IMG/VR virus record: IMGVR_UViG_3300032323_002843
Span: 1-64,000 of that record
From: a virus
Length of the DNA stretch: 64,000 bases
Strand: one strand, 5' to 3'
Shown here: one piece after another, positions 8,737-54,369 of the stretch
How positions within the stretch are numbered: position 1 is the stretch's first letter
How the letters are laid out: every line of letters starts with the position of its first letter
Notes under the pieces: generated by a model
The model's input: only the letters and a program-made list of their open reading frames with translations
Database searches by the model: none
What the model was told of the DNA's origin: nothing
Program-made: the position numbers and the translations under genes

Positions 8737-11700
8737 AATTGTTCTACCCTAGTTCACTTTCCCTAAGGTGGGGTTTTCAATAAATATTAGACTGTGCGGT
8801 AAGTTGCCTTAATAGCCCATCCAGGAGCGGAAACTGATTGCACTAATGCATTAGCACCACTTAATGCAACACTCATTGTTAATGCAGCTGCAGTTGAACC
8901 AATGTCTGGGGAGCTGTATTCAGTGTACTGAACATTTCCACTTCTCCAGTTACCGATTAATGTTCCTGCGCGTTGGTTTGATCCACTGAAAGCAACGAAA
9001 TCGAAGAATACACCGTTGTATGATGATGTTGGGATTGTTGCTAGTGTTGTAGTGCCTGATACTGAGGAGCTGTAGGAATTATAGTTGGCGTTTAGGAGTT
9101 GAAAGTCGCCTTCTACGTCTAGTTTGGCGATTGGTGTTGTTGTGCCTATACCTACATTACCATTATTGGTAATACGCATGCGTTCAGCATTCCCACCTGC
9201 TGCAAAAATCAAATCTGATTCTGATCTTACGCCAAAGGTATTAATCCCACCACCACTAACTATACCATTCCCATTCCCTATATATCCAACTACTGTTGAT
9301 GTATTAACTTGATATGTTGTGTAAAAGGTAGATGCATCTGATGTTCTAATAATAGCAGCTTGTACGCCACCTAATACATCTAATCTTGCTTGTGGAGATG
9401 TAGTACCTATACCAACATTACCACCAGAGGTGATACGCATACGTTCAGTAGCGTTAGTATGAAATGTAACTCCTCCTCCTGAGGCTGCATACATTTCAAA
9501 TAAACTATTAGTATTATCCCACCATATTCCTCCTTTAGTAGCTCCAGAACTATTGTGATCAAAAGTTATTTGAGTGTACTGCTGGCCAGTATTGTTTAAA
9601 TATAATTGATTTCCATTTCCTGCTGTAACTCCTATACCATTAGAGCCAACAACTGTTAATTTATAGTTTGGTGATGTAGTACCTATACCAACATTACCAT
9701 CAGCATTAATAACTAATTCATAGCGAGAATCTGTTTGGTTTTGAATACCAAACCCACCATTACTTACTCCTATTAGTTGGCTTGTAAGAAGGTATGTTTT
9801 AGAACCAATACCAGCTGATGCCATTTTTATTGAGGTAGTGCCTGAAGATTGATATAAATCTAAAGTAGCACTTGGAGATGTAGTGCCTATACCAACACTA
9901 CCTCCAGAGGTGATACGCATACGTTCGGAGCCATTAACCCAAAAACGCATAAAATCAGCACTATTATCATAAGTAATTCTACCTATAACCTTGCTATCAG
10001 TATCCCCGAATAATATATTTGCTTCATTATTTGTATCCCCAACAATTGATATTCCACCACCAGATAGGGTTCTTACTTCTAATGCATAAGCAGGAACTGT
10101 AGTACCTATACCTAATCCTGTAGAGGTTAGGCGCATTCTTTCTGAGCCTGATGCAAAGAAAAACATCCTTGCATCACCCATATAAATGGACTCGTTAGAA
10201 CCTAAACTTGCTCCATTAAATATACCTGAATAATTTGAATCAGAGTATGTTGTTAATTTTGTGGCAGCACTACCAAAACGACCTGTACCATTAACATCAA
10301 GTGTTGTTGCTGGGGATGTAGTACCTATACCAACATTACCACCAGATGTGATGCGGAGGCGTTCGGTGTTGTTAGTTTGGAGTGCTAATGGATGATTAGT
10401 TGATGTTCCAAAATAACCTACTCCACCACCATTAATAATTTCAGTGTTTGTTGTTCCATCGAAAGAACTTATATATCCATTAACTTGGAATGTTCTTGTT
10501 GGAGATGTAGTGCCTATACCAATACTTCCGCTTCTACCAGATATTATTCCACCGCCGCTACCTAATTTAATAGAGGCTACTCCTTGATCTTGTTGACCAT
10601 AGATACCAATAGTGTTTGCTACGTTTATATCCCACAATTCAGCATCATCACCACCTCTAAAGTACATTGCACCATTTGCATTAGCATAAACGGCTCCTGT
10701 TGCTCTTATATCTCCAGTTACATCTAATTTATAGGCAGGGGAGATAGATCCTATACCAACATTAGTTCCATTATCAAAAATAGATCCTGTTGTTAATGAA
10801 GTTGATGAAGCCCATCTAGCTATGTAGTTTGTAGAGCCACCAGATACACTTCCTCCACCACTTCCAGCAACTGTGATTACATCACCACTAGAGTTAACTG
10901 CTAAGTAAGCAGTTGCTGTACCAGCAAATGATGCTGTAGAGGTGTATGCTGGAAGGAAGAATTGTCTTGTATGTAAATTGAATTGAGCTACTAATGCATC
11001 TGATGCTGTATTAGTACCTCTTAAAATTCTAAAATATGGATTAGCATCATTTTGAAATACATCAAGCATTGATGCTGATGTGTACGATGTGCCTGCTTGG
11101 AAGAATATTTGTCCTCCTTCTGTTGTACTTTTAGGACCTAAAAATAAATTACCTTCTGAAGATACTGATGTAGCACCTATAGATACAGTTCCATTGACGT
11201 GGAGAGTAGTTGCTGGAGATGTGGTGCCAATACCAACACTACCAGAAGGTGTTATTTGATAAGCATAACTACCATCTGTGTTGTTATATAATCCAAAATT
11301 TCCATTATTTAAAGAATATAAATGCCAATCTTTACCTGTTGTTGATGTTGTATTATTTATTCTAATACTAGAAAGTAAACCAGTACCTGTTGATCTAATA
11401 GAACCAACTACATCTAAAGCTACAGATGGAGAAGTAGTGCCTATACCAACACTTCCTGCGTTTACATCAAGGATAATATCTTTACCAGATAACATATTTC
11501 TTATAATAAGATCTCCTTGAACACCTCCTGATACTATTTCGCTTCCACCTTCATATCCTATATATCCACTTTCAATATTATTACCATCAAATCTAACTGC
11601 TGCCATTCTATTAGCAGCGTTAGATGATAATCTAACAAGGCTTCTATTGTTAGTATCATATCCAATATCTAATTTAAATCCTGGATTTGTAGTACCTATA

Positions 11701-13866
11701 CCAACATTACCATCATTCTTAATTCTTATAGCCTCAGTGGTATTATTTGTTAAGAATTGAACATCACTATTTTCATAGTTTTGAAATCTTAAAACATTAC
11801 TATTATATCCTATTCTTAATCCATCTGTAGCTGTTGCTCCTGTTACTGAGTCTGTAATTCTGATATATCCAAGACCATCTGAAGAGCCATGAACATGAAG
11901 TACATTAGCTGGAGTTGTAGTGCCTATACCAACATTGCCATTACTTCCACTAATTAGCATTCTAATAGATCCACTAGTTTCAAAAGCAAGATCTTGAACG
12001 TCATTAGTACCTAATAATGCTTGAGCACCAAAACTATTTCCTCCTTGAATATAAACGTTTGTTGCTGTTGGAGCGAATGACGCTGATACTGCGTTTGTAG
12101 CGAACGAAGCACTAACAGCAGTTGATGCAAACGAAGCTGAAGTAGCATTATCTGCTCTTGAGGCGGTTCCTAATAAAGAACCAGTAATTCCAGTTCCTAC
12201 TACGTTTAATGATCCTGTTATACTAACACTACCAGTAAACTGGTGAGTATTGCTCATTAAACTACCGAATCTAGTTGATCCAGTTACAAAGTCAGTAGAC
12301 GATGTAATTGTTTGAGCAACAATTGTTTGAGCCGTTAAAGTGCCTCTAACGGTAAAGTTATCAGCGCTTGATGCTGTAAATGATGTGTTTGCTTGAGTTG
12401 CAAATGATGCTGAAATAGCATTTGTTGCGAACGAAGCACTTACTGCTGTTGTTGCAAATGAAGCAGATACTGCTGTAGATGAGAACGATGCTGATGTAGC
12501 ATTATCCGCTCTTGAAGCCGTTCCTAGTAAAGAACCAGTGAATGAAGTTGCTGTTGTACTTCCGCTTATGTTAAGTGAACCTGTTACTGTGTGAGTATCG
12601 GTGATTATGCTACCGATATTAACACCAGTTGGTGTTACTTCGAATTCACGAGCACTACCTGTTACTACAGTTAGGGAGCCTGTGATTTGTGTGTTGCCAC
12701 TAAATCTTGCAGTACCATTTACGTCAAACCTAAAACCTGCGTTAGTTTGACTATTTATAGCTACGTTACCATTATTAAAAATATTTAATCTTGGTGTATA
12801 TACTTGACTATTACTATTTGAACCAAAAACCAATGATAAAGTATCAACGTCTTTATCCCATATCATTCCTAAATCATATTGAAAACTATCTTGTGCAAAT
12901 AAATAAGCTGGTTTTGCTCCGGCAACGTTTGCAGTTCCTATAACTATTCTACTTACGTTACCATTTCTTTGTATTGCTCCTGCTGCATTTGTAGCTATAG
13001 CAAAATTATTAGAACCAAAAGTAATTGCATCATGAGTAAATCCAAACCTACTAGCATTACTTGAATTTATATAAGCATTTGCAACAGGTCCTACTCTTAA
13101 AGCAGCATTAAATACCCCCGTAAACGAACCAGTATTAAATGTAGGGTTAATATCTAATCCTACTAATACATCATTGTTTGCTGATGCTGTTAAAGCTGTG
13201 TTTATTAACTGACCCCTTGCTATTGCGCTTGATGCAGTTTCTGAGCCACCTAATGTTAATTTAGTTGCAGTACCTAATGTGGTTGTTCCTATTGCTATAT
13301 CGCCTTCAAAATAAGACCTATTACCTGATTGAGCATATATATCCCAATTACCACTAACACTGGTTTCTGCAGCATTATTAAATAATATACCGACATTAGC
13401 TACGCTACCTGCCGTTAAATTAGCTATTCTTAAAGCAATTTGTCTACTTACTGCACCACTACCTCCCTTAAATACATCTCTATAATCATAACCATTAAAA
13501 TTTGATATTGTTCCTGTACCTGTTACTGCACTTCCAACAGAATAAGCATTTGCTGTTGATGTTGTATTAGCACTAACATTTACTGCTGAGTTAAATCCTG
13601 TCATAGTTACAGCAGTAGATGGATTGTTTATGTCTGATTGTATACCGTTAACATTACCTGTATTTGTTGATGAAACAGTTGCAATGCTACGAATACCATA
13701 CATCTGACCCGAACTACTATTTACAGTATTAGAATTTACTATCAAGCTAGTATCACCATTTACAGCAGGTGCAGCATTTATTGTTGTAACCCCCTGTACT
13801 CTTGCACTACCACTTACATCTAACCTAAAAGCACTAGATCCAGTAATTCCAATTCCAACGTTACCA
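2515..13866 (-). repeat. Dispersed in-frame ~24-bp repeat GGT AAY GTW GGT ATA GGY ACT ACA (GNVGIGTT), ~37 copies across two fibre genes
   Basis: Plus-strand core GTAGTRCCTATACCWACRTTACC near 2520, 2744, 2975, 3797, 4165, 4640, 5771, 5978, 6224, 6464, 6938, 7241, 7516, 7885, 9400, 9676, 10318, 11689 and others. Confidence 0.9.
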
Positions 13867-22778: not shown

Positions 22779-23447
22779 CTATTTTCCGTATTCGTATTCA
22801 AGTATCTTTCCGACTAGATCTGATCTGTGGTTTTCTTTTAATTTAATCCACTTGATTTCTTCGATTTTTTTAGATAATTCGATAACATAACTTAAGCCGT
22901 TTATTTCGCCTGTATTTGACTTGATATCGGTCTGTTCGTTGTCACCGTTAATAACAATCTTACCAGTTTTACCCAGGCGTGTCAATATGGCTAGCATTTC
23001 ACCTTTAGTTAAGTTTTGTGCCTCCTCGACTATCAGAATATCGTCAATTGTTTTACCACGGATGAACTGGACTGGTAATGCTTTTACCTTACCATCCTCT
23101 ACTAGTTTAGCTACTTCTTTTTTATCTGAACAGCATTTGTTTAGATTTTCTAGTAGCGCCTCCATATATGGATCGAATTTACCGTTGATATCACCTGGTA
23201 AAAATCCTAATGATTTACCAACTTCCACAGCGGCACGTGTATTATATATACACTCAATTTGTTTTTTCTTAAGGAAATCTAAGGCGGCTTGAGCACATAC
23301 TAATGATTTACCACTACCTGCTCTACCTGTTATAACCACTACTTGGTTTTCAATTATTAACCTTTTTGCCTCTTTTTGCTCTTCGTTTAATTGAACAGCA
23401 TTGATAACTTTAATGTCGTTTTTTCTCTCACGATTAGGTTCACGCAT
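22779..23447 (-). CDS. phoH: PhoH-family ATPase
   Basis: GRAGSGKS Walker A, LGFLPG, FIRG.T, EEAQN, LTRLG, GD..Q.D and HRS motifs. Confidence 0.93.
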   Translation of the reverse strand: MREPNRERKNDIKVINAVQLNEEQKEAKRLIIENQVVVITGRAGSGKSLVCAQAALDFLKKKQIECIYNTRAAVEVGKSLGFLPGDINGKFDPYMEALLENLNKCCSDKKEVAKLVEDGKVKALPVQFIRGKTIDDILIVEEAQNLTKGEMLAILTRLGKTGKIVINGDNEQTDIKSNTGEINGLSYVIELSKKIEEIKWIKLKENHRSDLVGKILEYEYGK

Positions 23448-23547: not shown

Positions 23548-25173
23548 TTACAAAGTGTTTAAACCAGCAACATATACTTTACCATAGTAGTCAGGACGGA
23601 TCATCTTCTTAGCGTAACGAGTCATCAAACCTTTACGTGGAGTGAAGGTATTTGGATCGTAAAGAAGTGGAGTCATGATCAATGGAACATATGGAGCGAA
23701 TACAGCACCGCATTCTAAGAATTGAGCACCTTTGTAACCCATTAAGATTACGTTCTCAGTCATGTAAGGGTTTTTGTAAACCTTATAACGAGAATTTAAA
23801 GTACCAACTTTCTGAATACCGAAGTTGAATTCCATTTTCTCACCATCACCATCAGAAGCAAATCCAGGGATTGATTCTAAGATAGTAGCGATAGTTGGAG
23901 AAGTTACTAAGAAATTAGCACCACCACGAAGAGTTAACTGATGGATAGTGTTAGATACTTTTTGTAACTTAGTTCCTAAAGTTTGGAACCAACCACCTTG
24001 TGTATTGTAGAAACCTAAGTTGCTATTAGCTACACCAGAAGCGTTTACAGCTTGGTTGTTAACAGCAGACCAGTATTCAGTTGTGAAAGCGTTCTCAATT
24101 AACATATCTAAGATTTCTAAATCGATTTCCATAGAGATGTATTGAGATAAGATACCAGTTAATTCAGCTTCAGCATCAATGCTATGGTAAGCATTTAAGT
24201 CTTGAGCGAATTCTGGAGTCCATTGTGCTTTTAACTTACGAGTTTTAGCAACGATAGCTTCAGATTTTAACTGAACGTTGATTTCTGGGATAGCAATAGC
24301 TGAAGAGCTAAGAGCGTTTGGATAACCACCATCGCCACCATTACCAGAACCACCAGAAACTGATTGATCTTCGAAATCACCACGTGCAGTAGCAACTGGA
24401 GCAACGTTGAAGAACAATGTTACAGTTTGAGTAGGGCTATTAGCTACTAATGAGCCAGTAACGATAAATGAAGCTGTATTGTTAGATACAGTAGTGAAAG
24501 CTTGTAATACATCAGTTACACCGATAGAACCAGAGCTGAATACGAAAGCACGGATACCATTCTGATCAGCAGCTGATGGAAGTGGAACTAAGATCTTCTT
24601 CCAACCAGTAGCAGCAGAAGCTGAGTAGTTAGAATCCAAGTTAAAGTCAACCCAAGTTGTTGAACCAGTGATAGCAGCAACAGAAGCTGAGAATTGGTTG
24701 ATAGAGTAACCGAACTTACCAGCACCATAAAGTGATTGAGAAGTGATATCAGTTACGTTAGTAGTTTGGTTAGCACCGTAAAGTGAACCACCAGTTTGGA
24801 AAGGACGAACACCTGTACCATACTTGAAATCAAGATAGAATACAAGACCTGAAGGTAAGTTCATCGGCTGTACAGAAACGAATTCTTTAGCAGCGATTTC
24901 ACCGAATACACGGCGAACTAAAGGTAAAGCTACACCGTTCCAAGCTTCTTGAGAATAAGAACCACCACCGATAGTAGCAGTACCTGTAGCAGAAGCTTCG
25001 GTTACTAATTGTTTAGCCTGATTCTCAAGGAGAATAGACATTGTGTTTTTGTCAGTAGTAGTCTTGATACCTTCTAAAAGGCCAGATTTTTCCCACTTGC
25101 TAGACAAACGTTTTGCATCTTCCATTACACTCTTGTATTGGTTAGATGACTCTAATAATTGTTGTACGTTCAT
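23548..25173 (-). CDS. Major capsid protein (T4 gp23-like)
   Basis: LLENQ, LPLVRRV, VQPM..PSGLVF, AKTRKLKAQWTPE.AQDL.AYH.IDAEAEL, APYVPL and TRY motifs. Confidence 0.96.
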   Translation of the reverse strand: MNVQQLLESSNQYKSVMEDAKRLSSKWEKSGLLEGIKTTTDKNTMSILLENQAKQLVTEASATGTATIGGGSYSQEAWNGVALPLVRRVFGEIAAKEFVSVQPMNLPSGLVFYLDFKYGTGVRPFQTGGSLYGANQTTNVTDITSQSLYGAGKFGYSINQFSASVAAITGSTTWVDFNLDSNYSASAATGWKKILVPLPSAADQNGIRAFVFSSGSIGVTDVLQAFTTVSNNTASFIVTGSLVANSPTQTVTLFFNVAPVATARGDFEDQSVSGGSGNGGDGGYPNALSSSAIAIPEINVQLKSEAIVAKTRKLKAQWTPEFAQDLNAYHSIDAEAELTGILSQYISMEIDLEILDMLIENAFTTEYWSAVNNQAVNASGVANSNLGFYNTQGGWFQTLGTKLQKVSNTIHQLTLRGGANFLVTSPTIATILESIPGFASDGDGEKMEFNFGIQKVGTLNSRYKVYKNPYMTENVILMGYKGAQFLECGAVFAPYVPLIMTPLLYDPNTFTPRKGLMTRYAKKMIRPDYYGKVYVAGLNTL

Positions 25174-48021: not shown

Positions 48022-49287
48022 CTATTGATATATTTCTTCGTGTTGTTTACCAAAATCTCTTAATAATACTCCTGCTTTAGCGTTTGCTTCATTTTCAATG
48101 TCACTTCCGGTTTTACCACTTTCGTAGCTAATACGGCCATCTTCGTCTTGTTTACGGTGTACTAATTCATGTGCTAATGTTCTTAATATATCACCCATGT
48201 TTCTGTTTCCGCAATACACCCATATTTTATTGCTATTCGGATCAAAATATCCAAAACTCCTCATTTCCTTCGCTTTAGCAGTATCATATGATAGAGCTAA
48301 GTTACGGGGAGGATTTTGAATTTCCAAGTTTTTAATAGCATACTTTATAAATTCACCAATGGTTGCAGTTTCGCTTTCGTTTAACTTACCTTCCATTAAT
48401 TTGGTTTGTTTAGGTTGACCTAAATTTAATGTTGCCATTAGTACTTTAGCTATTTTACCTGCTTTACGTAAAGTCTGGCCACCTTTAACTAAATGGTATT
48501 TGTCTTTATCGTAATTTAATATTAATGGTATTTCGCCATCACTATTTTCTTCTTTATTTTCTAGTTTATCTAAAATATCCTTAGATAATACAATCATATT
48601 TCCAGCAACAAAGGCATATAATACATCAGGAATAGGTACATTAAATTTATCTGCTGCTATTTCTATTTCGTGTCTTGCTTTATCAACGATAGCTTGATAA
48701 GCATCATCTACATTTTGATATTTTCTTTCTTCTAATGAAATTTCTTCACCTTTATCTTCTGCAGGTGGTAATTTTTTACCAATTGTATTTGCAAAATCAG
48801 TTAAATTAATTCCATCAGGTATAAATTGAGCAATAGCATCTGCATTATTTGATTGAATAGCATTTCTTAATCCTGTAGCATTTACAGCATCAACAGTACC
48901 TGCATCAAATACTTTTGCATTTGGATAATCCATACGTTTAAAACGGCTAGCATCATCTTTACCAAATGCAACTATAAAATTAGTATCAGGATTTTCTTTA
49001 ACTAAATTATAAGTTTCTCTAACAGGATTTTCTAAAGCAACTCTTATTTCAACATTGTTATCTAAAAGTGTTTTATATAATTCCCATACAGCAACACTTT
49101 CATCTGCAGTTACACCTTCACGAGTTTTAGGTGATACTAACACAACTACCTGATCAGCATTTTGTAATAGTTTTTTAACTACTTCAAAGTGACCCCTGTG
49201 TGGTGGTTTAAAAGCACCTGGGAAGACAGCTATTGTTTGCTTGTCTTGTTCAAGTAATGTGTTTGCTATGTATTGTCCTAAATTCAT
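48022..49287 (-). CDS. HIGH-type nucleotidyltransferase fused to a C-terminal HExxH (zincin-like) domain
   Basis: FPGAFKPPHRGH at the N-terminus; RTLAHELVH...ENEANA at the C-terminus. Confidence 0.75.
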   Translation of the reverse strand: MNLGQYIANTLLEQDKQTIAVFPGAFKPPHRGHFEVVKKLLQNADQVVVLVSPKTREGVTADESVAVWELYKTLLDNNVEIRVALENPVRETYNLVKENPDTNFIVAFGKDDASRFKRMDYPNAKVFDAGTVDAVNATGLRNAIQSNNADAIAQFIPDGINLTDFANTIGKKLPPAEDKGEEISLEERKYQNVDDAYQAIVDKARHEIEIAADKFNVPIPDVLYAFVAGNMIVLSKDILDKLENKEENSDGEIPLILNYDKDKYHLVKGGQTLRKAGKIAKVLMATLNLGQPKQTKLMEGKLNESETATIGEFIKYAIKNLEIQNPPRNLALSYDTAKAKEMRSFGYFDPNSNKIWVYCGNRNMGDILRTLAHELVHRKQDEDGRISYESGKTGSDIENEANAKAGVLLRDFGKQHEEIYQ

Positions 49288-50051
49288 TTTAAAAAGCTAT
49301 TTACTTTATTTTTAGCATCATCTGTAGATGAAAACTCTGGAGTAGATTGGATTAATTGCTGAATACTGCTATTTAGAGCTTCAATTTCAGCTTTCTTTTT
49401 AGCTAATTCATCTGGTGTGTATTCTTTACCACTACCTTTAACTGTTTTAAAGAATCTTTCTTTTGCAATAGCAGGATCATATTCTAATTTACCTTTAGGA
49501 TCATTATTAATTAATACGAATTTATTACCAAACGCTTGTTCGTATGTACCAATATTACTATTTACACCAGCCCATGTTTTTAAAACAATAGATGGTGGTA
49601 ATGAACGACCTCCAGCTTTATCACGATCAGCATTACGTTGTAATGATGTGTAAGGTGAAACCCAAATCATGACCATCATTGTATCGTAGCCTAATTTTTC
49701 TAATTCGTCTTTTTTCTTTAATAAAGGTTTACTAGCAGCACCAGTACCATCAATAACAATGTTTTGTTTAGCAGCGGATAACTGTGCATATTTTTCTTTA
49801 GTAGCTTTTTGAGCTTGACCCATTAATTTGCCTGCTTGCGATAATTGATCCTGATCGAAATCTGCGACTTTTAAACCTAAACCTGCTGCTTTAAGTAATT
49901 CTTCATAGGTGTCATCGACATTAATTACAGTCAAATTTTTCGGTATTAATTGAGCAGAAGTGAATGTCTTACCAGATCCAGCAGGACCAGCCAGGAATAT
50001 AGCTTTTGGTTTGGATTGTATTTCTTTTAATAAATCTAGTAACTTGATCAT
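49284..50051 (-). CDS. Zeta-toxin-like/AAA_33 P-loop kinase
   Basis: Start moved to ATG 50051 (MIKLLDLLKE); LAGPAGSGKT, INVDD, IVIDGTG and RN..R motifs. Confidence 0.8.
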   Translation of the reverse strand: MIKLLDLLKEIQSKPKAIFLAGPAGSGKTFTSAQLIPKNLTVINVDDTYEELLKAAGLGLKVADFDQDQLSQAGKLMGQAQKATKEKYAQLSAAKQNIVIDGTGAASKPLLKKKDELEKLGYDTMMVMIWVSPYTSLQRNADRDKAGGRSLPPSIVLKTWAGVNSNIGTYEQAFGNKFVLINNDPKGKLEYDPAIAKERFFKTVKGSGKEYTPDELAKKKAEIEALNSSIQQLIQSTPEFSSTDDAKNKVNSFLK

Positions 50052-50113
50052 ATGTGAATATAAATAGGTGACCTGGACGAGCCAAGCCACCTATAAATAT
50101 TTGTAGTTTTTAA

Positions 50114-51316
50114 TTATTGTCCCTTAACTGGGAAACGTGTCCATCCATTTATCCATGTTGGTTTAGATATAGTTTCCATTTCAGCTTTAGTATAGCTTAC
50201 TTCTTTGTTACCTTGTGATAATGCTTTTATTTTTATATCAGCAGCGGTAAACACTGTAGATGTAGATCTAAAGTTTAATAATGGGTCGAATGACTGTACT
50301 TCATTATTTTCAAACTTACTAATACCATCTTTATAAGCTTGTGCTGTTTCATTTGATTCAATACTAAATCCACCTTTTTGATATCCTAATATTTTAGAAT
50401 TAGTCATTGTAAACTGTGTTGCACGTCTCCATCTTAAACCTAGATTGTGGTTTGCTAATGAAGCAGCATCAAATGGTCCAATCAGTACCATACTATTTAA
50501 TTTAGGATGTGTAAATGGTTGAGCGGTTGAGCCTGTACCATCATTATCACATTCTATACCATTTCCAGCATCACCATTATCTACAAATTGTGGATCACGT
50601 TTTGAGATACTGTTTGTTATAGTTCCAGTATAACCAAAATCAAAATCATAATCATCATCTGCAGTAGCAAAAGCATATAAATTTTTAGCATTTACAGTAC
50701 CACCAAAAAATTCAAACGCATCATCGTTAGCATAAATAGTTTGAACATTCTCAATAATTGTTCCACTACCAACACCACCTAATGTTAATGCATTGATTTC
50801 GGAGTTTGGCATTGCTGCAATTCCAGCATATTCAATACGAATAAATTTTAAAACACCACTATTATCTAAATCATTAGTACCACCATAAGGACGACCAATA
50901 CCACCTTCGATAGTTGGTTCTGATGATCTGTTGGTTTTAGCACGGCCTAAAATTACAATACCACCCCAATCGCCAGGAGACCTCTCGCCGACGTTTTTGC
51001 CTGAGGTGAATATAATTGGTTTTGTAGCTGTACCTTCAGCTATAATTTGAGCCCCTCTTTCAATACACAGGGCACCTTTTTCAGCAATATCACTTATAAT
51101 AGTGGTACCTGGTTGGATGATAAGTTTAGCACCATCAGTTATGTAAACATATCCTTTTAAAGTCCATGTTTTGTCTGATGTTAATGTAATTGTTGTGTTA
51201 ATGTTACCGCTTAATGTTGTTGATGTAGGGACATTAATTGGTCCTTCACCTCCACCTAATTCTTTTTTGCAGGAAAATAGTCCAATGATAGCTAATAGTG
51301 TTAATAGCTTTTTCAT
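50114..51316 (-). CDS. Beta-helix lipoprotein of the type encoded beside TonB-dependent receptors
   Basis: Lipobox LFSC-KK; AEGT...PIIFTS, GDWGG, DNSG.L...RIEYAG, GVGSGT and DD.FEFFGG motifs. Confidence 0.85.
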   Translation of the reverse strand: MKKLLTLLAIIGLFSCKKELGGGEGPINVPTSTTLSGNINTTITLTSDKTWTLKGYVYITDGAKLIIQPGTTIISDIAEKGALCIERGAQIIAEGTATKPIIFTSGKNVGERSPGDWGGIVILGRAKTNRSSEPTIEGGIGRPYGGTNDLDNSGVLKFIRIEYAGIAAMPNSEINALTLGGVGSGTIIENVQTIYANDDAFEFFGGTVNAKNLYAFATADDDYDFDFGYTGTITNSISKRDPQFVDNGDAGNGIECDNDGTGSTAQPFTHPKLNSMVLIGPFDAASLANHNLGLRWRRATQFTMTNSKILGYQKGGFSIESNETAQAYKDGISKFENNEVQSFDPLLNFRSTSTVFTAADIKIKALSQGNKEVSYTKAEMETISKPTWINGWTRFPVKGQ

Positions 51317-53556
51317 AAGTTTAAGTTTAATGTTAATGAAATTATTTGTTCGTTGTTTGTTTTAATTAAATCACCTTTTGTTTTTTGGTAATAAATGGAT
51401 GGCTGCGCAAACACATCACTTATTGCCAGTTTAAGTTCACCTTTATTTATTTTATGTAAGTATACTACATCTAAAACGTTTCTAGAATTTTCAAATATAT
51501 CAGCATATCCTTGGAAACCAACTGCTGATATTCTATCTCCTACTCTATTATAAGTAATGTTTAATGTTTCTTTTTTCTTGTGTAAATTAATACCACCATT
51601 AATAACGTAATTAGATTGACCTTGCATTTGTCTATTTAATCCTTTTACATTTGAATTCATTAAGGATGTATTAGTATAAAAATCAAACCATCCATTTATT
51701 TTCTTACGAATTTCTATTTCAACACCATATAACACAGCAGATTCTGGGTTAGTGTAGGTTAGTAGTAAATTAGATGGTACTGATCCGTCTGCTACTATTT
51801 GTTCAATTGGTTTGATAAAATTTTTACCAAATAAACTTACAGATATATTTTCACCTGCTTTTGGATATAATTCCCATTTTAAATCTAAATTATATATGTC
51901 AGATTTTTCTAGATTAGGATTACCTAACAATTGTGCATTACGTACAAAATCATAATAAGCAAAATTAGCTACTTCTCTAAATTCAGGACGTGCTAATGTT
52001 TTACTTAATGAAAATCTATACTTTGTTTTTTCTAAATTGTAAGAAAGATTTAATGATGGAAGTGGATCTAAATACTTTCTATTTACATTTACTCTAGTAC
52101 CACTAAAGTCAGCTGTTTGTACATTAAATAAATTGTATTCTGTTCTTAATCCAGTATTTAATTTCCATTTACCAAAATCTTTATCATACATTACAAACCC
52201 ATTAGCTAAATCAAAATCAGCTGTGTATCTATCTGTATTATTAGTAATTTCATTTAACATATCAACAGCATCGTATCTGAATATTCTTGCTTGAAAGTTT
52301 CTTAAGCGTTTAACGTATCCACTTCCAACTTTAATATCACCAAAATCTTTACTAATGCTTCCATTAAAACTATTTTCATCCATTACACTCCAAAAACGAT
52401 ATGTATCTCTCCAAGCAACAGCATAAGGTTCATTTATACCTAATGATTTAGTGATTGGATTAACTCTATAGTCAGGTTGATCACGTAACATTAAATTATG
52501 TCCTAAATTAATATCCCATGTTTTAATTTTAGCATCAAACTGAGTGTTAATAGATGTTTTAATGATATTGTTTGAAGAATTACTTCTAACATTTTGTACA
52601 TTATCAAAATTATCACCATTACGAGTTAAATAAGATTCTTCAACTTGGTTATTAAATAATGTTTTTAAGCTATAACGATTAACTCCTAAATAAGTTATGT
52701 TTAATAATCCATTTAATGATTTTACATTAGTAAATGATGTGTCCTTATATTTGTAAGCTAATTCAGTTGATGATTGATAATCTTGTCTATCAATATAGTT
52801 TAATGAATATGAATTACGAGCTACAGAACTAAATAATACGTTCCAATTATTTTTCTTAACACCAAATGATAAAGCACCATTAGCATTAGGAATAGATATA
52901 AATTCTTTAGCTAATGGAGATGAAATTAACTTAGTATATGCTCTTTTATCTCCGTTTCCACTAATACGAAATTTGTATGTAGAAGGAAAATTAGATGGAA
53001 AATCAACACGTTTAACCAATTTAAAGTTTTGATTTGTAGATATTAATCCATATCCACTACCTAAACTTAAATTAAGAAATTTACTAGATACTTCTTTAGT
53101 TGATACTTGAATTAACCCACCAGCAAAATCACCTGGTAGATTAGCTGTAGATGATTTATTTACAACTATATTATCTATTAAACTAGAAGGTATAATGTCA
53201 AATGAAAATGCTCTACGGTCAGGTTCAGTAGAAGGAAGCAATGTTTTGTTTAACATTGCTAAATTGTAGCGATCAGCTAACCCTCTAACTAATACAAATT
53301 TATCGTTTTGTACCGTGACACCACTTACACGCTTTAAAGCATCACTAGCAGTTCTATCAGGTGTTTTTTTAATAAAATCAATTGATACACCGTCAGATAC
53401 AGCTAGATTATTACGAACAATGTTTATAACAGCAGCTTCAGTGGATTTTTTGCCTGTAGAACGAATTGTTACTTCAGACATTGTTTTATTAAATAAAGTA
53501 TCTTGGGTAAAACCAAAACCAGGACACAATAGTAATAGGACTAATATGTATTTCAT
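51313..53556 (-). CDS. TonB-dependent receptor
   Basis: Signal peptide; plug motifs DALKRVSGV, VRGL.DRY and GDFAGG; barrel motifs ARPEFRE, GNPNL and DLKWELYP; C-terminal alternating beta strand. Confidence 0.9.
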   Translation of the reverse strand: MKYILVLLLLCPGFGFTQDTLFNKTMSEVTIRSTGKKSTEAAVINIVRNNLAVSDGVSIDFIKKTPDRTASDALKRVSGVTVQNDKFVLVRGLADRYNLAMLNKTLLPSTEPDRRAFSFDIIPSSLIDNIVVNKSSTANLPGDFAGGLIQVSTKEVSSKFLNLSLGSGYGLISTNQNFKLVKRVDFPSNFPSTYKFRISGNGDKRAYTKLISSPLAKEFISIPNANGALSFGVKKNNWNVLFSSVARNSYSLNYIDRQDYQSSTELAYKYKDTSFTNVKSLNGLLNITYLGVNRYSLKTLFNNQVEESYLTRNGDNFDNVQNVRSNSSNNIIKTSINTQFDAKIKTWDINLGHNLMLRDQPDYRVNPITKSLGINEPYAVAWRDTYRFWSVMDENSFNGSISKDFGDIKVGSGYVKRLRNFQARIFRYDAVDMLNEITNNTDRYTADFDLANGFVMYDKDFGKWKLNTGLRTEYNLFNVQTADFSGTRVNVNRKYLDPLPSLNLSYNLEKTKYRFSLSKTLARPEFREVANFAYYDFVRNAQLLGNPNLEKSDIYNLDLKWELYPKAGENISVSLFGKNFIKPIEQIVADGSVPSNLLLTYTNPESAVLYGVEIEIRKKINGWFDFYTNTSLMNSNVKGLNRQMQGQSNYVINGGINLHKKKETLNITYNRVGDRISAVGFQGYADIFENSRNVLDVVYLHKINKGELKLAISDVFAQPSIYYQKTKGDLIKTNNEQIISLTLNLNL

Positions 53557-53583
53557 TAAATGAATTTAATTCACTTATACGTA

Positions 53584-54369
53584 TTATTCTTTTATTTTAA
53601 CACTTGTTGGTAATAATTCCGTCATAGGTTTAAAATCTGGGTTTTCTAGTTTATATATTTCGTATATATTTTTAAACATTTTAAAATTAGTTTCAATTTC
53701 ATTTACGAACTTTAATTCCCATCCTTTACCTTGTATCTTTCCGTTCTTTCCTTCACCACGAGTATTTGCTTTAACCCATAAGATACCTGTGTGAGTTACT
53801 TTCTCATCGTGTGTTTCATTCCATGCTTGAGCATAAGCAGCTAATTGTAAATCATAAGACGTATGTAAACTGTTCGATGTCTTAAGATCTAGTAACCATA
53901 TGTTATCAAACATTCTAACAACTAAATCCGCTGTACCAGCATATTTGTGTTCGTCTGAGAATAAATGATATTCTGTTGCAATTAATTCTGGTTTATGTGT
54001 GTTCCAAAAATCAGCAAAACGTAAAATCATTTTCCAAACCTCAAGAGAGTACTTAGCACTCCCATCAGGATAAATCCAATTTATTTCTTCTCCATTTAAA
54101 AACGCATCTACAGCTGTGTGTACTTGAGTACCTTCACCTGCTGCTTTAGATGCAATAATATCACTATTATGTCCTACATCTTTCAACCAAGAATGGAAAA
54201 ATTGATTTTTAGGGAAATAATTTAAAACAGATGTTACGGATGGATAATATTCACCATTACGTCTGTAGAATCTACTGTCTAAAACATTAACTTGTTTATC
54301 CCCTTCAGCGTATTCAACAATACGTTTGATTTTAGGATCTTTGATAATGTTTACATTTCTTTCGATCAT
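53584..54369 (-). CDS. PD-(D/E)XK exonuclease-like protein
   Basis: YPSVTSVL, GT.VH, YAGTADL, DLKTS and QLAAY motifs. Confidence 0.85.
   Translation of the reverse strand: MIERNVNIIKDPKIKRIVEYAEGDKQVNVLDSRFYRRNGEYYPSVTSVLNYFPKNQFFHSWLKDVGHNSDIIASKAAGEGTQVHTAVDAFLNGEEINWIYPDGSAKYSLEVWKMILRFADFWNTHKPELIATEYHLFSDEHKYAGTADLVVRMFDNIWLLDLKTSNSLHTSYDLQLAAYAQAWNETHDEKVTHTGILWVKANTRGEGKNGKIQGKGWELKFVNEIETNFKMFKNIYEIYKLENPDFKPMTELLPTSVKIKE

Follow-up and report, generated by a model that had tools for sequence, protein, structure and literature searches.

The stretch of viral DNA that we have analysed (64,000 nucleotides, positions 1 to 64,000 of the IMG/VR record IMGVR_UViG_3300032323_002843, called the window below) carries, inside a genuine phage genome, an intact gene for a TonB-dependent transporter (TBDT), followed directly by the gene of a beta-helix lipoprotein, a surface-lipoprotein candidate that we call the lid. 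The relatives of this pair in bacterial chromosomes are linked to phosphate genes, and among phages the pair is widespread and under purifying selection. On balance we favour the view that the two genes are a host-derived auxiliary cassette for phosphorus scavenging, which would raise the import of phosphorus compounds while the phage replicates. The carriers are probably lytic-type freshwater phages of Bacteroidota, with Aquirufa-like Cytophagales as their hosts. An earlier note, made from the letters of the window alone, had singled out the same pair and had offered two explanations for it, nutrient (possibly phosphorus) scavenging and surface remodelling for superinfection exclusion; both are weighed below.

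A transporter and lid pair inside a phage genome

Both open reading frames (ORFs) are read from the minus strand, the TBDT first and the lipoprotein directly after it, with 4 bases in common (Table 1). The N terminus of the TBDT, read by eye from the sequence, is a run of 18 hydrophobic residues with an FTQ end, i.e., an export leader, and the plug begins soon after it. The Pfam plug family matches with an E-value of 1.4e-7 and 32.5 bits (cut-off 23.9 bits), and OMP_b-brl_3 matches residues 402-737 (E 5e-25). Among the NCBIfam models the only match at E <= 0.01 was TIGR01782 (the TonB-Xanth-Caul subfamily, 160.8 bits, under its cut-off of 310 bits), and no SusC model appeared. Ahead of the plug, the motif SEVTIRS, a predicted TonB box, lines up in our TBDT alignment (A4) with LSEVVVR of the long-form viral and bacterial relatives, and it resembles DEVVVTG of Bt1763, the source of the TonB-box consensus (Gray 2021, PMC7782687). 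The plug holds many invariant columns, and the phage TBDTs retain all 71 columns that are invariant in the family. The AlphaFold2 (AF2) model, built from 34 aligned relatives, was confident over the barrel and poor over the plug (predicted local distance difference test, pLDDT, <50 over residues 1-154). When it was compared with the PDB by Foldseek, 210 matches were found at E <= 1e-3, the best of them PhuR (8the, E 1.2e-19), and among the matches listed all were TBDTs. The ORF is thus an intact TBDT, as the earlier note had read it. Despite its low pLDDT the plug is better conserved than any other part of the alignment, and the shallow alignment of 34 rows may be the reason for the low value. 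At the C terminus (window 51316-51336) the viral TBDTs of A4 have NLNL or another ending with an aliphatic last residue, and the Aquirufa-type copies have NYNF or NFNF; an aromatic final residue is usual in barrel assembly.

The lid has a lipobox (LFSC) at its N terminus, in which Cys16 is followed by KKELGG. Nearly every copy of the lipoprotein has an acidic residue after the lipid-carrying cysteine, and such a residue is part of the export signals of Bacteroidota (Price, bioRxiv 10.1101/2023.03.17.533168). The AF2 model is of high confidence (pLDDT 92.1, predicted template modelling score 0.90), and by VIA-align it is close to the epimerase AlgG (Z 24.0) and to tailspikes, pectate/alginate lyases and NosD (Z 20-23.6), from which we derive a right-handed parallel beta-helix. 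A sequence search of the PDB with the lipoprotein gave chance-level matches only (E >= 0.34), and Foldseek of its model against the PDB found nothing at E <= 1e-3. In the precomputed assignments of Pfam 38.1 its family is PF28492 (Beta_helix_4), and the phage lipoproteins retain all 35 of the invariant columns of the family alignment. Along the helix there are many invariant positions with Asp, Glu or Asn (D116, D151, D198, D220, D221, D226, E162, E255 and N252). The overlap of the TBDT with a lipobox-bearing beta-helix protein, another claim of the earlier note, was in this way borne out. Two other identities were considered and rejected. A phage tailspike or depolymerase would account for the beta-helix, and is incompatible with the lipobox, the operon with a TBDT and the chromosomal orthologues that are paired with TBDTs. 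A SusC/SusD glycan importer was discarded because neither protein has a SusD Pfam family and the lid has the fold of a beta-helix and not the TPR-like (tetratricopeptide repeat-like) one of SusD.

The window belongs to an IMG/VR record of 87,908 bases, linear and 52% complete by CheckV. After filtering, 103 ORFs remain in the record, all but five short ones on the same strand, and among them are the genes of a major head protein, a portal, a large terminase, an endolysin, baseplate wedge proteins and phoH. The pair is flanked by replication genes, a PD-(D/E)XK exonuclease and a primase upstream, and by a P-loop kinase-like gene and a cytidylyltransferase downstream. It is as AT-rich as the phage, as had been noticed before (GC content 0.29-0.32, against 0.29-0.39 in the window and 0.38-0.44 in the nearest bacterial loci, those of Aquirufa). 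The same junction of exonuclease and TBDT is present in seven other IMG/VR contigs. Furthermore, Logan contigs of other runs bridge every junction, the one between TBDT and exonuclease in runs X2 (53251-53638) and X4 (52768-53681), the one between TBDT and lipoprotein in X4 (50946-52020) and the one between lipoprotein and downstream flank in X6 (50072-50372). The runs were made in three studies, of which the one with X2 also includes the possible source sample. The lipoprotein gene is present too, at another position, in a related record of 171,171 bp with direct terminal repeats, rated 100% complete; this one contig is the source of both a pair locus (L051) and an exonuclease locus (L168). 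Chimeric assembly, which the earlier note had named as one of two refuting conditions, and host flanks are excluded by the bridging contigs, by the complete terminal-repeat genome with the cassette and by the lack of Aquirufa flank homologues, and we conclude that the pair is encoded within a genuine phage genome.

Larger phages carry it as well. Pair-bearing records of 209 and 326 kb (both 100% complete) and of 162 kb (95%) gave strong terminase matches, so that jumbo phages are among the carriers. Since phrog_2 is weak as a phage hallmark (a control was positive in 11 of 14 cellular genomes), only matches at E <= 1e-39 were used; the terminase search left out the records of loci L014 and L021. 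In three jumbo-phage pair loci (L027, L063 and L072, of records G417, G418 and G416) genes lie on both strands. Of these jumbo-phage records one, of 326 kb, is rated complete, and for those of 118 and 142 kb the completeness is put at 39-46%.

Spread, descent and the domain-less form

Such a pair had been called unusual in phages. This holds for the catalogued ones: PHROGs has no family for either the TBDT or the lipoprotein, a DNA search of the GenBank phages with 6 kb around the pair gave no match, and TBDT matches were found in 5 of 50,697 GenBank phage records. Four of the five are either short gut contigs or distant, and the last is the 635-kb megaphage LR745206, where a lipoprotein relative lies near the TBDT, the proteins being 26% (TBDT) and 35% (lipoprotein) identical to those of the window and the gene order reversed. 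It does not hold for IMG/VR, where at least 124 stretches have a relative of the TBDT. Of these loci 80 were kept for locus counts; both genes are present in 74, and the remaining six end at a contig end. At least one further ORF in common with the phage of the window was found in 49 of the 80 viral loci and in 0 of 18 bacterial ones, for instance its endolysin (14/80, most at 73-95% identity, two at ~31%) or a baseplate wedge protein (5/80, mostly at ~34-42%). Homologues of the chromosomal flanks of the Aquirufa pair appeared in 0 of the 80. Among the neighbours in viral loci that have only the pair in common with the window there are members of the PHROG families for peptidase, endolysin, tail sheath, DNA polymerase and thymidylate synthase; this tally covers 141 neighbours in 24 of the 31 pair-only loci, as counts of families and not as a verdict on each locus.

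Among the close relatives of this phage the cassette is rare. The exonuclease was used to find 80 loci, 56 of them evaluable downstream, and the pair stood at that site in one and was missing from 55; in 10 of these 55 the kinase gene comes directly after the exonuclease. The lipoprotein, looked for anywhere in the genome, was present in one of ten large related records, i.e., one of the nine that are near-complete (>=90%). A contig of run X4, from a relative ~87% identical, joins 50101 to 53627 and skips the pair, and because this joint lies just upstream of a terminator-like hairpin the insertion point is placed between exonuclease and hairpin. The region after the exonuclease is hence a variable accessory site. 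In the family of ~170-kb phages it is hypervariable (L155-L234, about locus positions 9780-13500), with unrelated inserts of 0 to ~4 kb ahead of the kinase or cytidylyltransferase genes. In one relative (L184:9820-10980) a lipoprotein 45% identical to the lid comes directly after the exonuclease, with no TBDT detected in the locus; it may be a lone lid gene.

We have reconstructed the tree of 83 distinct TBDTs, rooted with more distant bacterial homologues. In it 56 IMG/VR sequences form a virus-only clade (support of 98 in the SH-like approximate likelihood ratio test, SH-aLRT), the sister of which (SH-aLRT 97) holds 10 TBDTs of Aquirufa/Spirosomataceae and six further ones from IMG/VR. Among 121 sampled genomes of the family to which the Aquirufa genome belongs, the lipoprotein was found at E <= 1e-150 in that Aquirufa genome only. 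The ratio of nonsynonymous to synonymous substitution rates (dN/dS), in those phage-phage pairs that could be scored, was 0.06-0.18 for the TBDT and 0.07-0.14 for the lipoprotein, and therefore both genes are kept by selection in the phages; in the most divergent phage pairs the synonymous sites are saturated. To judge from the sequences, the cassette appears to have been captured long ago from an Aquirufa-like lineage and to have spread later among unrelated phage backbones. These data bear on the most trivial explanation, that the pair is passenger DNA, recently captured from a host and neutral or decaying, with no role in infection, or else an artefact of assembly or provirus trimming. The record is indeed linear and half complete, most relatives lack the cassette and the site after the exonuclease is hypervariable. 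However, the virus-only clade is old and diverse, with dS up to saturation and dN/dS at ~0.1, the GC content is that of the phage and not of Aquirufa, contigs of other runs bridge the junctions and a complete terminal-repeat genome has the cassette, all of which makes this explanation highly improbable.

The TBDT of the window is a short form. Bacterial relatives have a CarboxypepD_reg-like domain of ~80 residues between signal peptide and TonB box, confirmed by Pfam in the Aquirufa copy (Plug + CarbopepD_reg_2 + OMP_b-brl_3) and aligned over by the others; the window copy has Plug and OMP_b-brl_3 alone. Out of 62 distinct viral TBDTs, 35 are long (824-854 aa, with the matching extra N-terminal segment) and 27 are short (747-757 aa, the window copy among them). 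Every short form in A4 has the identical junction, the end of the leader (F-S/T-Q) followed by DTLF, the last strand of the domain. On the first TBDT tree the short forms need at least five changes. When the gene was split, they needed seven changes on the tree of the barrel part, where a single clade was rejected (approximately unbiased, AU, test, p 3.9e-8), and three on that of the plug part, where it was not (AU p 0.185); as the short-form group was defined after the first tree had been seen, the AU test is indicative only. Several independent losses of the domain, a reading tried and abandoned, do not sit well with the shared junction and with one clade being rejected in the barrel part and not in the plug part. 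Given the same junction everywhere and the differing histories of plug and barrel, a single deletion, moved between cassettes by recombination within the gene, fits better and appears to be the simplest reading of the alignment. It is notable that these domain-less copies are under purifying selection in phages.

A lost domain could also mark a new job. We have considered, along the lines of the earlier note, that the phage TBDT and lid replace or mask a receptor protein in the outer membrane of the host, so that superinfection is blocked or the progeny kept from adhering to the debris of lysed cells, import being irrelevant. TBDTs are common phage receptors, the domain is gone from 27 of the 62 copies, the N-terminal part and the barrel differ in history as is expected for conflict genes, and the cassette is sporadic in the population. 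Yet the TonB-box-like motif, the plug and all of the family-invariant columns are retained, the two genes are kept together wherever contig ends do not cut the locus (74/80), and purifying selection acts along both of them. An energised transporter with a lid would be superfluous for a mask, and there is no sign of these phages adsorbing to this TBDT. We regard surface remodelling as quite unlikely.

Link to phosphate and proposed role

In a sample of 401 Bacteroidota genomes, 260 encode a homologue of the lipoprotein (E <= 1e-10), and its relatives at E <= 1e-3 amount to 6,534 representatives (50% clustering), many of them with 2-5 tandem copies of the domain. For a survey of the genomic neighbourhood there were 25 candidate bacterial loci; L091, L140 and L147 were dropped before the count (short contig or miscalled ORFs), which left 22. 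In all 22 a TBDT stands directly upstream of the lipoprotein; these TBDTs have 915-962 aa, or 845 aa in Aquirufa. The closest bacterial relative is the pair of Aquirufa (69% and 72% identity), and there it is followed by a protein of the alkaline-phosphatase superfamily and two PHO4 phosphate transporters. Within three ORFs on each side the 22 loci have 125 neighbours, in which the most frequent Pfam families are PBP_like_2 (a family that includes PstS; 5), Trans_reg_C (5), HATPase_c (4) and PBP_like (4), followed by PHO4, Response_reg, HisKA and Metallophos (3 each), Porin_O_P and PhoU_div (2 each). Counted by loci, after clustering and annotation of representatives, there were seven with a porin O/P-like protein, five with an OmpR-type regulator, four each with PBP_like_2 and a histidine kinase, three with PHO4 and two with PhoU_div. 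Altogether one or more phosphate-linked genes lie within this range in 14 of the 22 loci. A few have SusD-like genes among their neighbours. A small ORF of 136-205 aa, conserved and without a Pfam match, adjoins the pair on the lipoprotein side in seven of the 22 (Table 1); it is not in the phage cassette. Some loci (such as L143, L144 and L146) have tandem duplicates of the lid gene beside one TBDT, and long lid relatives with 2-5 tandem Beta_helix_4 domains (P0241-P0253 and others) are common in bacteria, up to 2,403 aa.

Published work points in the same direction. In the phoBR cluster of Flavobacterium johnsoniae, Fjoh_0545 (a TBDT with pf07715, pf13715 and pf14905) and Fjoh_0546 (the lipoprotein FII, with a pectin-lyase fold) lie with OprP, PhoR and PhoB, and upon depletion of inorganic phosphate their transcripts had fold-change values of 8.02 and 9.91 (Lidbury et al. 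2020, PMC8115612). The system was among the most strongly phosphate-induced proteins of Flavobacterium, and the lipoproteins of this kind were a major fraction of the exoproteome (PMC8115612). The statement of the earlier note that such pairs are induced by phosphate starvation is thus confirmed for the Flavobacterium pair and agrees with the neighbours of the bacterial homologues, and its proposal of phosphorus scavenging is supported by both. The phage pair has in common with Fjoh_0545/0546 the order of the genes, the beta-helix of pectin-lyase type in the lipoprotein, a domain structure in which the long viral and bacterial TBDTs align over the N-terminal domain, and, in its bacterial relatives, neighbours like porin O/P, PhoR and PhoB. 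It differs in its location, among replication genes and not beside phoBR, and in the domain missing from the window copy. A second relative in kind is BT4055/BT4056 of Bacteroides thetaiotaomicron, a non-SusC TBDT beside a lipoprotein of the pectin-lyase superfamily, with an acidic residue after the lipobox cysteine as in our lid; they were taken for a TBDT and a putative lid of non-SusD type, which is reported to cap the barrel, with a proximity conserved in 621 genera, and the available part of that preprint mentions no phage copies (Price 2023, bioRxiv 10.1101/2023.03.17.533168). The bacterial lids are often longer (440-1016 aa, against 400 aa in the phage). In Caulobacter crescentus ElpS (CC0170), a surface-anchored lipoprotein made under phosphate starvation and encoded beside the TBDT CC0171, is linked to phosphate mobilisation as well; unlike the phage lid it is alphaproteobacterial and released by a protease dependent on type II secretion (Le Blastier et al. 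2010, PMC2996285), and according to two reports it is only distantly related (PMC8115612, bioRxiv 10.1101/2023.03.17.533168).

A sequence of events can be proposed for the phage. The pair would be transcribed together with the phage replication genes, as suggested by the 27-base gap after the exonuclease, in which no terminator-like site was called, and by the hairpin after the pair, and it would thereby be uncoupled from PhoBR control, with no need to wait for the PhoBR response of the host. The Sec, Lol/lipoprotein-export and BAM machinery of the host would bring both proteins to the outer membrane. There the lid may capture a phosphorus-containing substrate at the cell surface, which the TBDT, energised by the TonB of the host, would import, increasing the supply for copying a genome of ~170 kb. 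The cassette would do for phages of Bacteroidota what pstS does for cyanophages. A bolder version holds that the infected cell harvests phosphorus-rich polymers (for example extracellular DNA, nucleotides or polyphosphate from lysed neighbours) free of PhoBR, and that the domain-less form, recombined onto different barrels, is an adaptation which frees the transporter from pairing with the host TonB or from a biogenesis checkpoint; this we consider speculative and rather unlikely.

Several results weigh against phosphorus scavenging. The assignment of the phage pair to the TBDT/lid systems of the Pho regulon is drawn from architecture, synteny and Pfam family and not from direct alignment with Fjoh_0546, BT4056 or ElpS, and the induction by phosphate depletion is published for the Flavobacterium pair and for ElpS, to which ours is likened by architecture. 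In the phage itself the neighbours of the pair are replication genes and not phosphate genes. In Caulobacter a change of intracellular phosphate was not detected (PMC2996285). The model of the transporter is of low confidence in the plug region. The domain absent from the window copy is one whose deletion in the SusC protein Bt1763 abolished growth though the protein was made, with a suggested role in biogenesis or in the choice among TonB paralogues (Gray et al. 2021, PMC7782687), and activity of the short form is therefore not to be assumed. Finally, the scarcity of the cassette in this phage family, both after the exonuclease and elsewhere in the genome, means that any benefit must be conditional.

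Two more points of this sort lead to the alternative that the pair imports something else (a metal, a cofactor or a carbon source) and that the phosphate link of the bacteria was not carried over to the phage clade: eight of the 22 bacterial loci have no phosphate-linked neighbour within three ORFs, and no substrate is assigned to any member of the bacterial system in the available parts of the three reports (PMC8115612, PMC2996285, bioRxiv 10.1101/2023.03.17.533168). The fold of the lid is also common to polysaccharide lyases and epimerases, and a preprint on megaphages has read the 'TonB-dependent receptor SusC' of Mar_Mega_1 and LR745206, like us, as an auxiliary gene, but one for carbohydrate uptake (bioRxiv 10.1101/2021.07.26.453748). 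Against this stand the Aquirufa pair, the nearest of all, after which a phosphatase-superfamily gene and PHO4 transporters directly follow, and the phosphate genes that head the tally of neighbours. Moreover, neither in the phage nor in the listed bacterial loci does a SusD-like partner directly adjoin the TBDT of the pair. Another substrate is for these reasons an unlikely choice, and phosphorus remains the one we prefer.

What is known of phosphorus-acquisition genes in phages comes mainly from cyanophages, in which the products are a periplasmic binding protein and a phosphatase. Their genes, pstS and phoA, are host-derived, occur in lytic phages of aquatic bacteria and are sporadic among relatives. 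The likeness to the cassette extends to all of these traits; the difference lies in the product, an energised outer-membrane importer with its lid, and in the phylum of the host. Our literature search found no phage-borne Pho-type TBDT/beta-helix-lid cassette, no description of its spread in freshwater phages and none of the domain-less form, although supplementary virome tables could hold unremarked cases, and it returned no paper with phrases such as 'phage-encoded TonB-dependent'. The megaphage preprint, in its available part, mentions neither a lid nor a link to phosphate. A complete energised import unit of the outer membrane, barrel and lid, kept by many freshwater phage lineages would be a new route, and if the proposed role is true, the viral reprogramming of nutrient uptake would extend to the Bacteroidota. 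These bacteria often lack high-affinity uptake of the PstS type (Lidbury et al., PMC8115612). Retention by phages suggests that the TBDT/lid system is important enough to be stolen. The compact and diverse phage copies offer a route to the imported substrate, the natural variants with and without the N-terminal domain could reveal what this domain does, and in lakes one could follow how the presence or absence of the cassette in phage populations varies with the availability of phosphate.

Neighbouring genes and other features of the window

The coordinates of the pair, its parts and its surroundings are collected in Table 1.

Table 1. Features of the window and, in the last row, of the bacterial loci (positions as locus:start-end)
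Feature	Position	Strand	Description
Surface-lipoprotein candidate (lid)	50114..51316	(-)	400 aa; lipobox, right-handed beta-helix, PF28492; architecture of the ElpS / Fjoh_0546 / BT4056 kind
TBDT, short form	51313..53556	(-)	747 aa; signal peptide joined straight to TonB-box-like motif, plug and 22-strand-type barrel
TBDT signal peptide	53503..53556	(-)	residues 1-18, last three FTQ; read from sequence and alignment
TonB-box-like motif SEVTIRS	53458..53478	(-)	residues 27-33; from alignment
TBDT plug domain	53119..53388	(-)	residues 57-146; Pfam PF07715
TBDT beta-barrel	51316..53079	(-)	residues 160-747; pLDDT mostly 80-92
Upstream flank, PD-(D/E)XK exonuclease	53584..54369	(-)	phrog_298; 27 bases ahead of the TBDT start
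Terminator-like hairpin	50064..50094	(-)	13-pair stem, 6 G-C, T-rich tail; 20 bases past the lipoprotein stop
Downstream flank, P-loop kinase-like protein	49284..50051	(-)	Zeta_toxin/AAA_33 Pfam
phoH homologue	22779..23447	(-)	context only
Small ORF beside the bacterial pair	L093:7769-8236, L094:5518-5988, L096:4435-4890, L132:7275-7799, L134:7193-7810, L136:9310-9840, L138:9342-9848		conserved

The cassette is closed by the terminator-like hairpin. The kinase-like ORF beyond it probably begins at the ATG at 50051 (MIKLLDLLKE...) and not at the listed GTG at 50090, because the latter falls within the hairpin. A scan of the window for sigma-70 promoters gave 40 sites, not above the shuffled sequences (mean 48.2), the promoters of Bacteroidota being outside this model, and no tRNA genes were found in the window. 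In run X20 (the library text says RNA-Seq, so that RNA is only guessed) short contigs are 88-95% like parts of both genes and their flanks, which is not evidence of transcription. The earlier note had seen a fit between phosphate-induced pairs and phoH. The gene is present, as had been said, but it is weak as support for the phosphate reading. It directly adjoins the gene of the major head protein (23548-25173), both lying far from the TBDT cassette.

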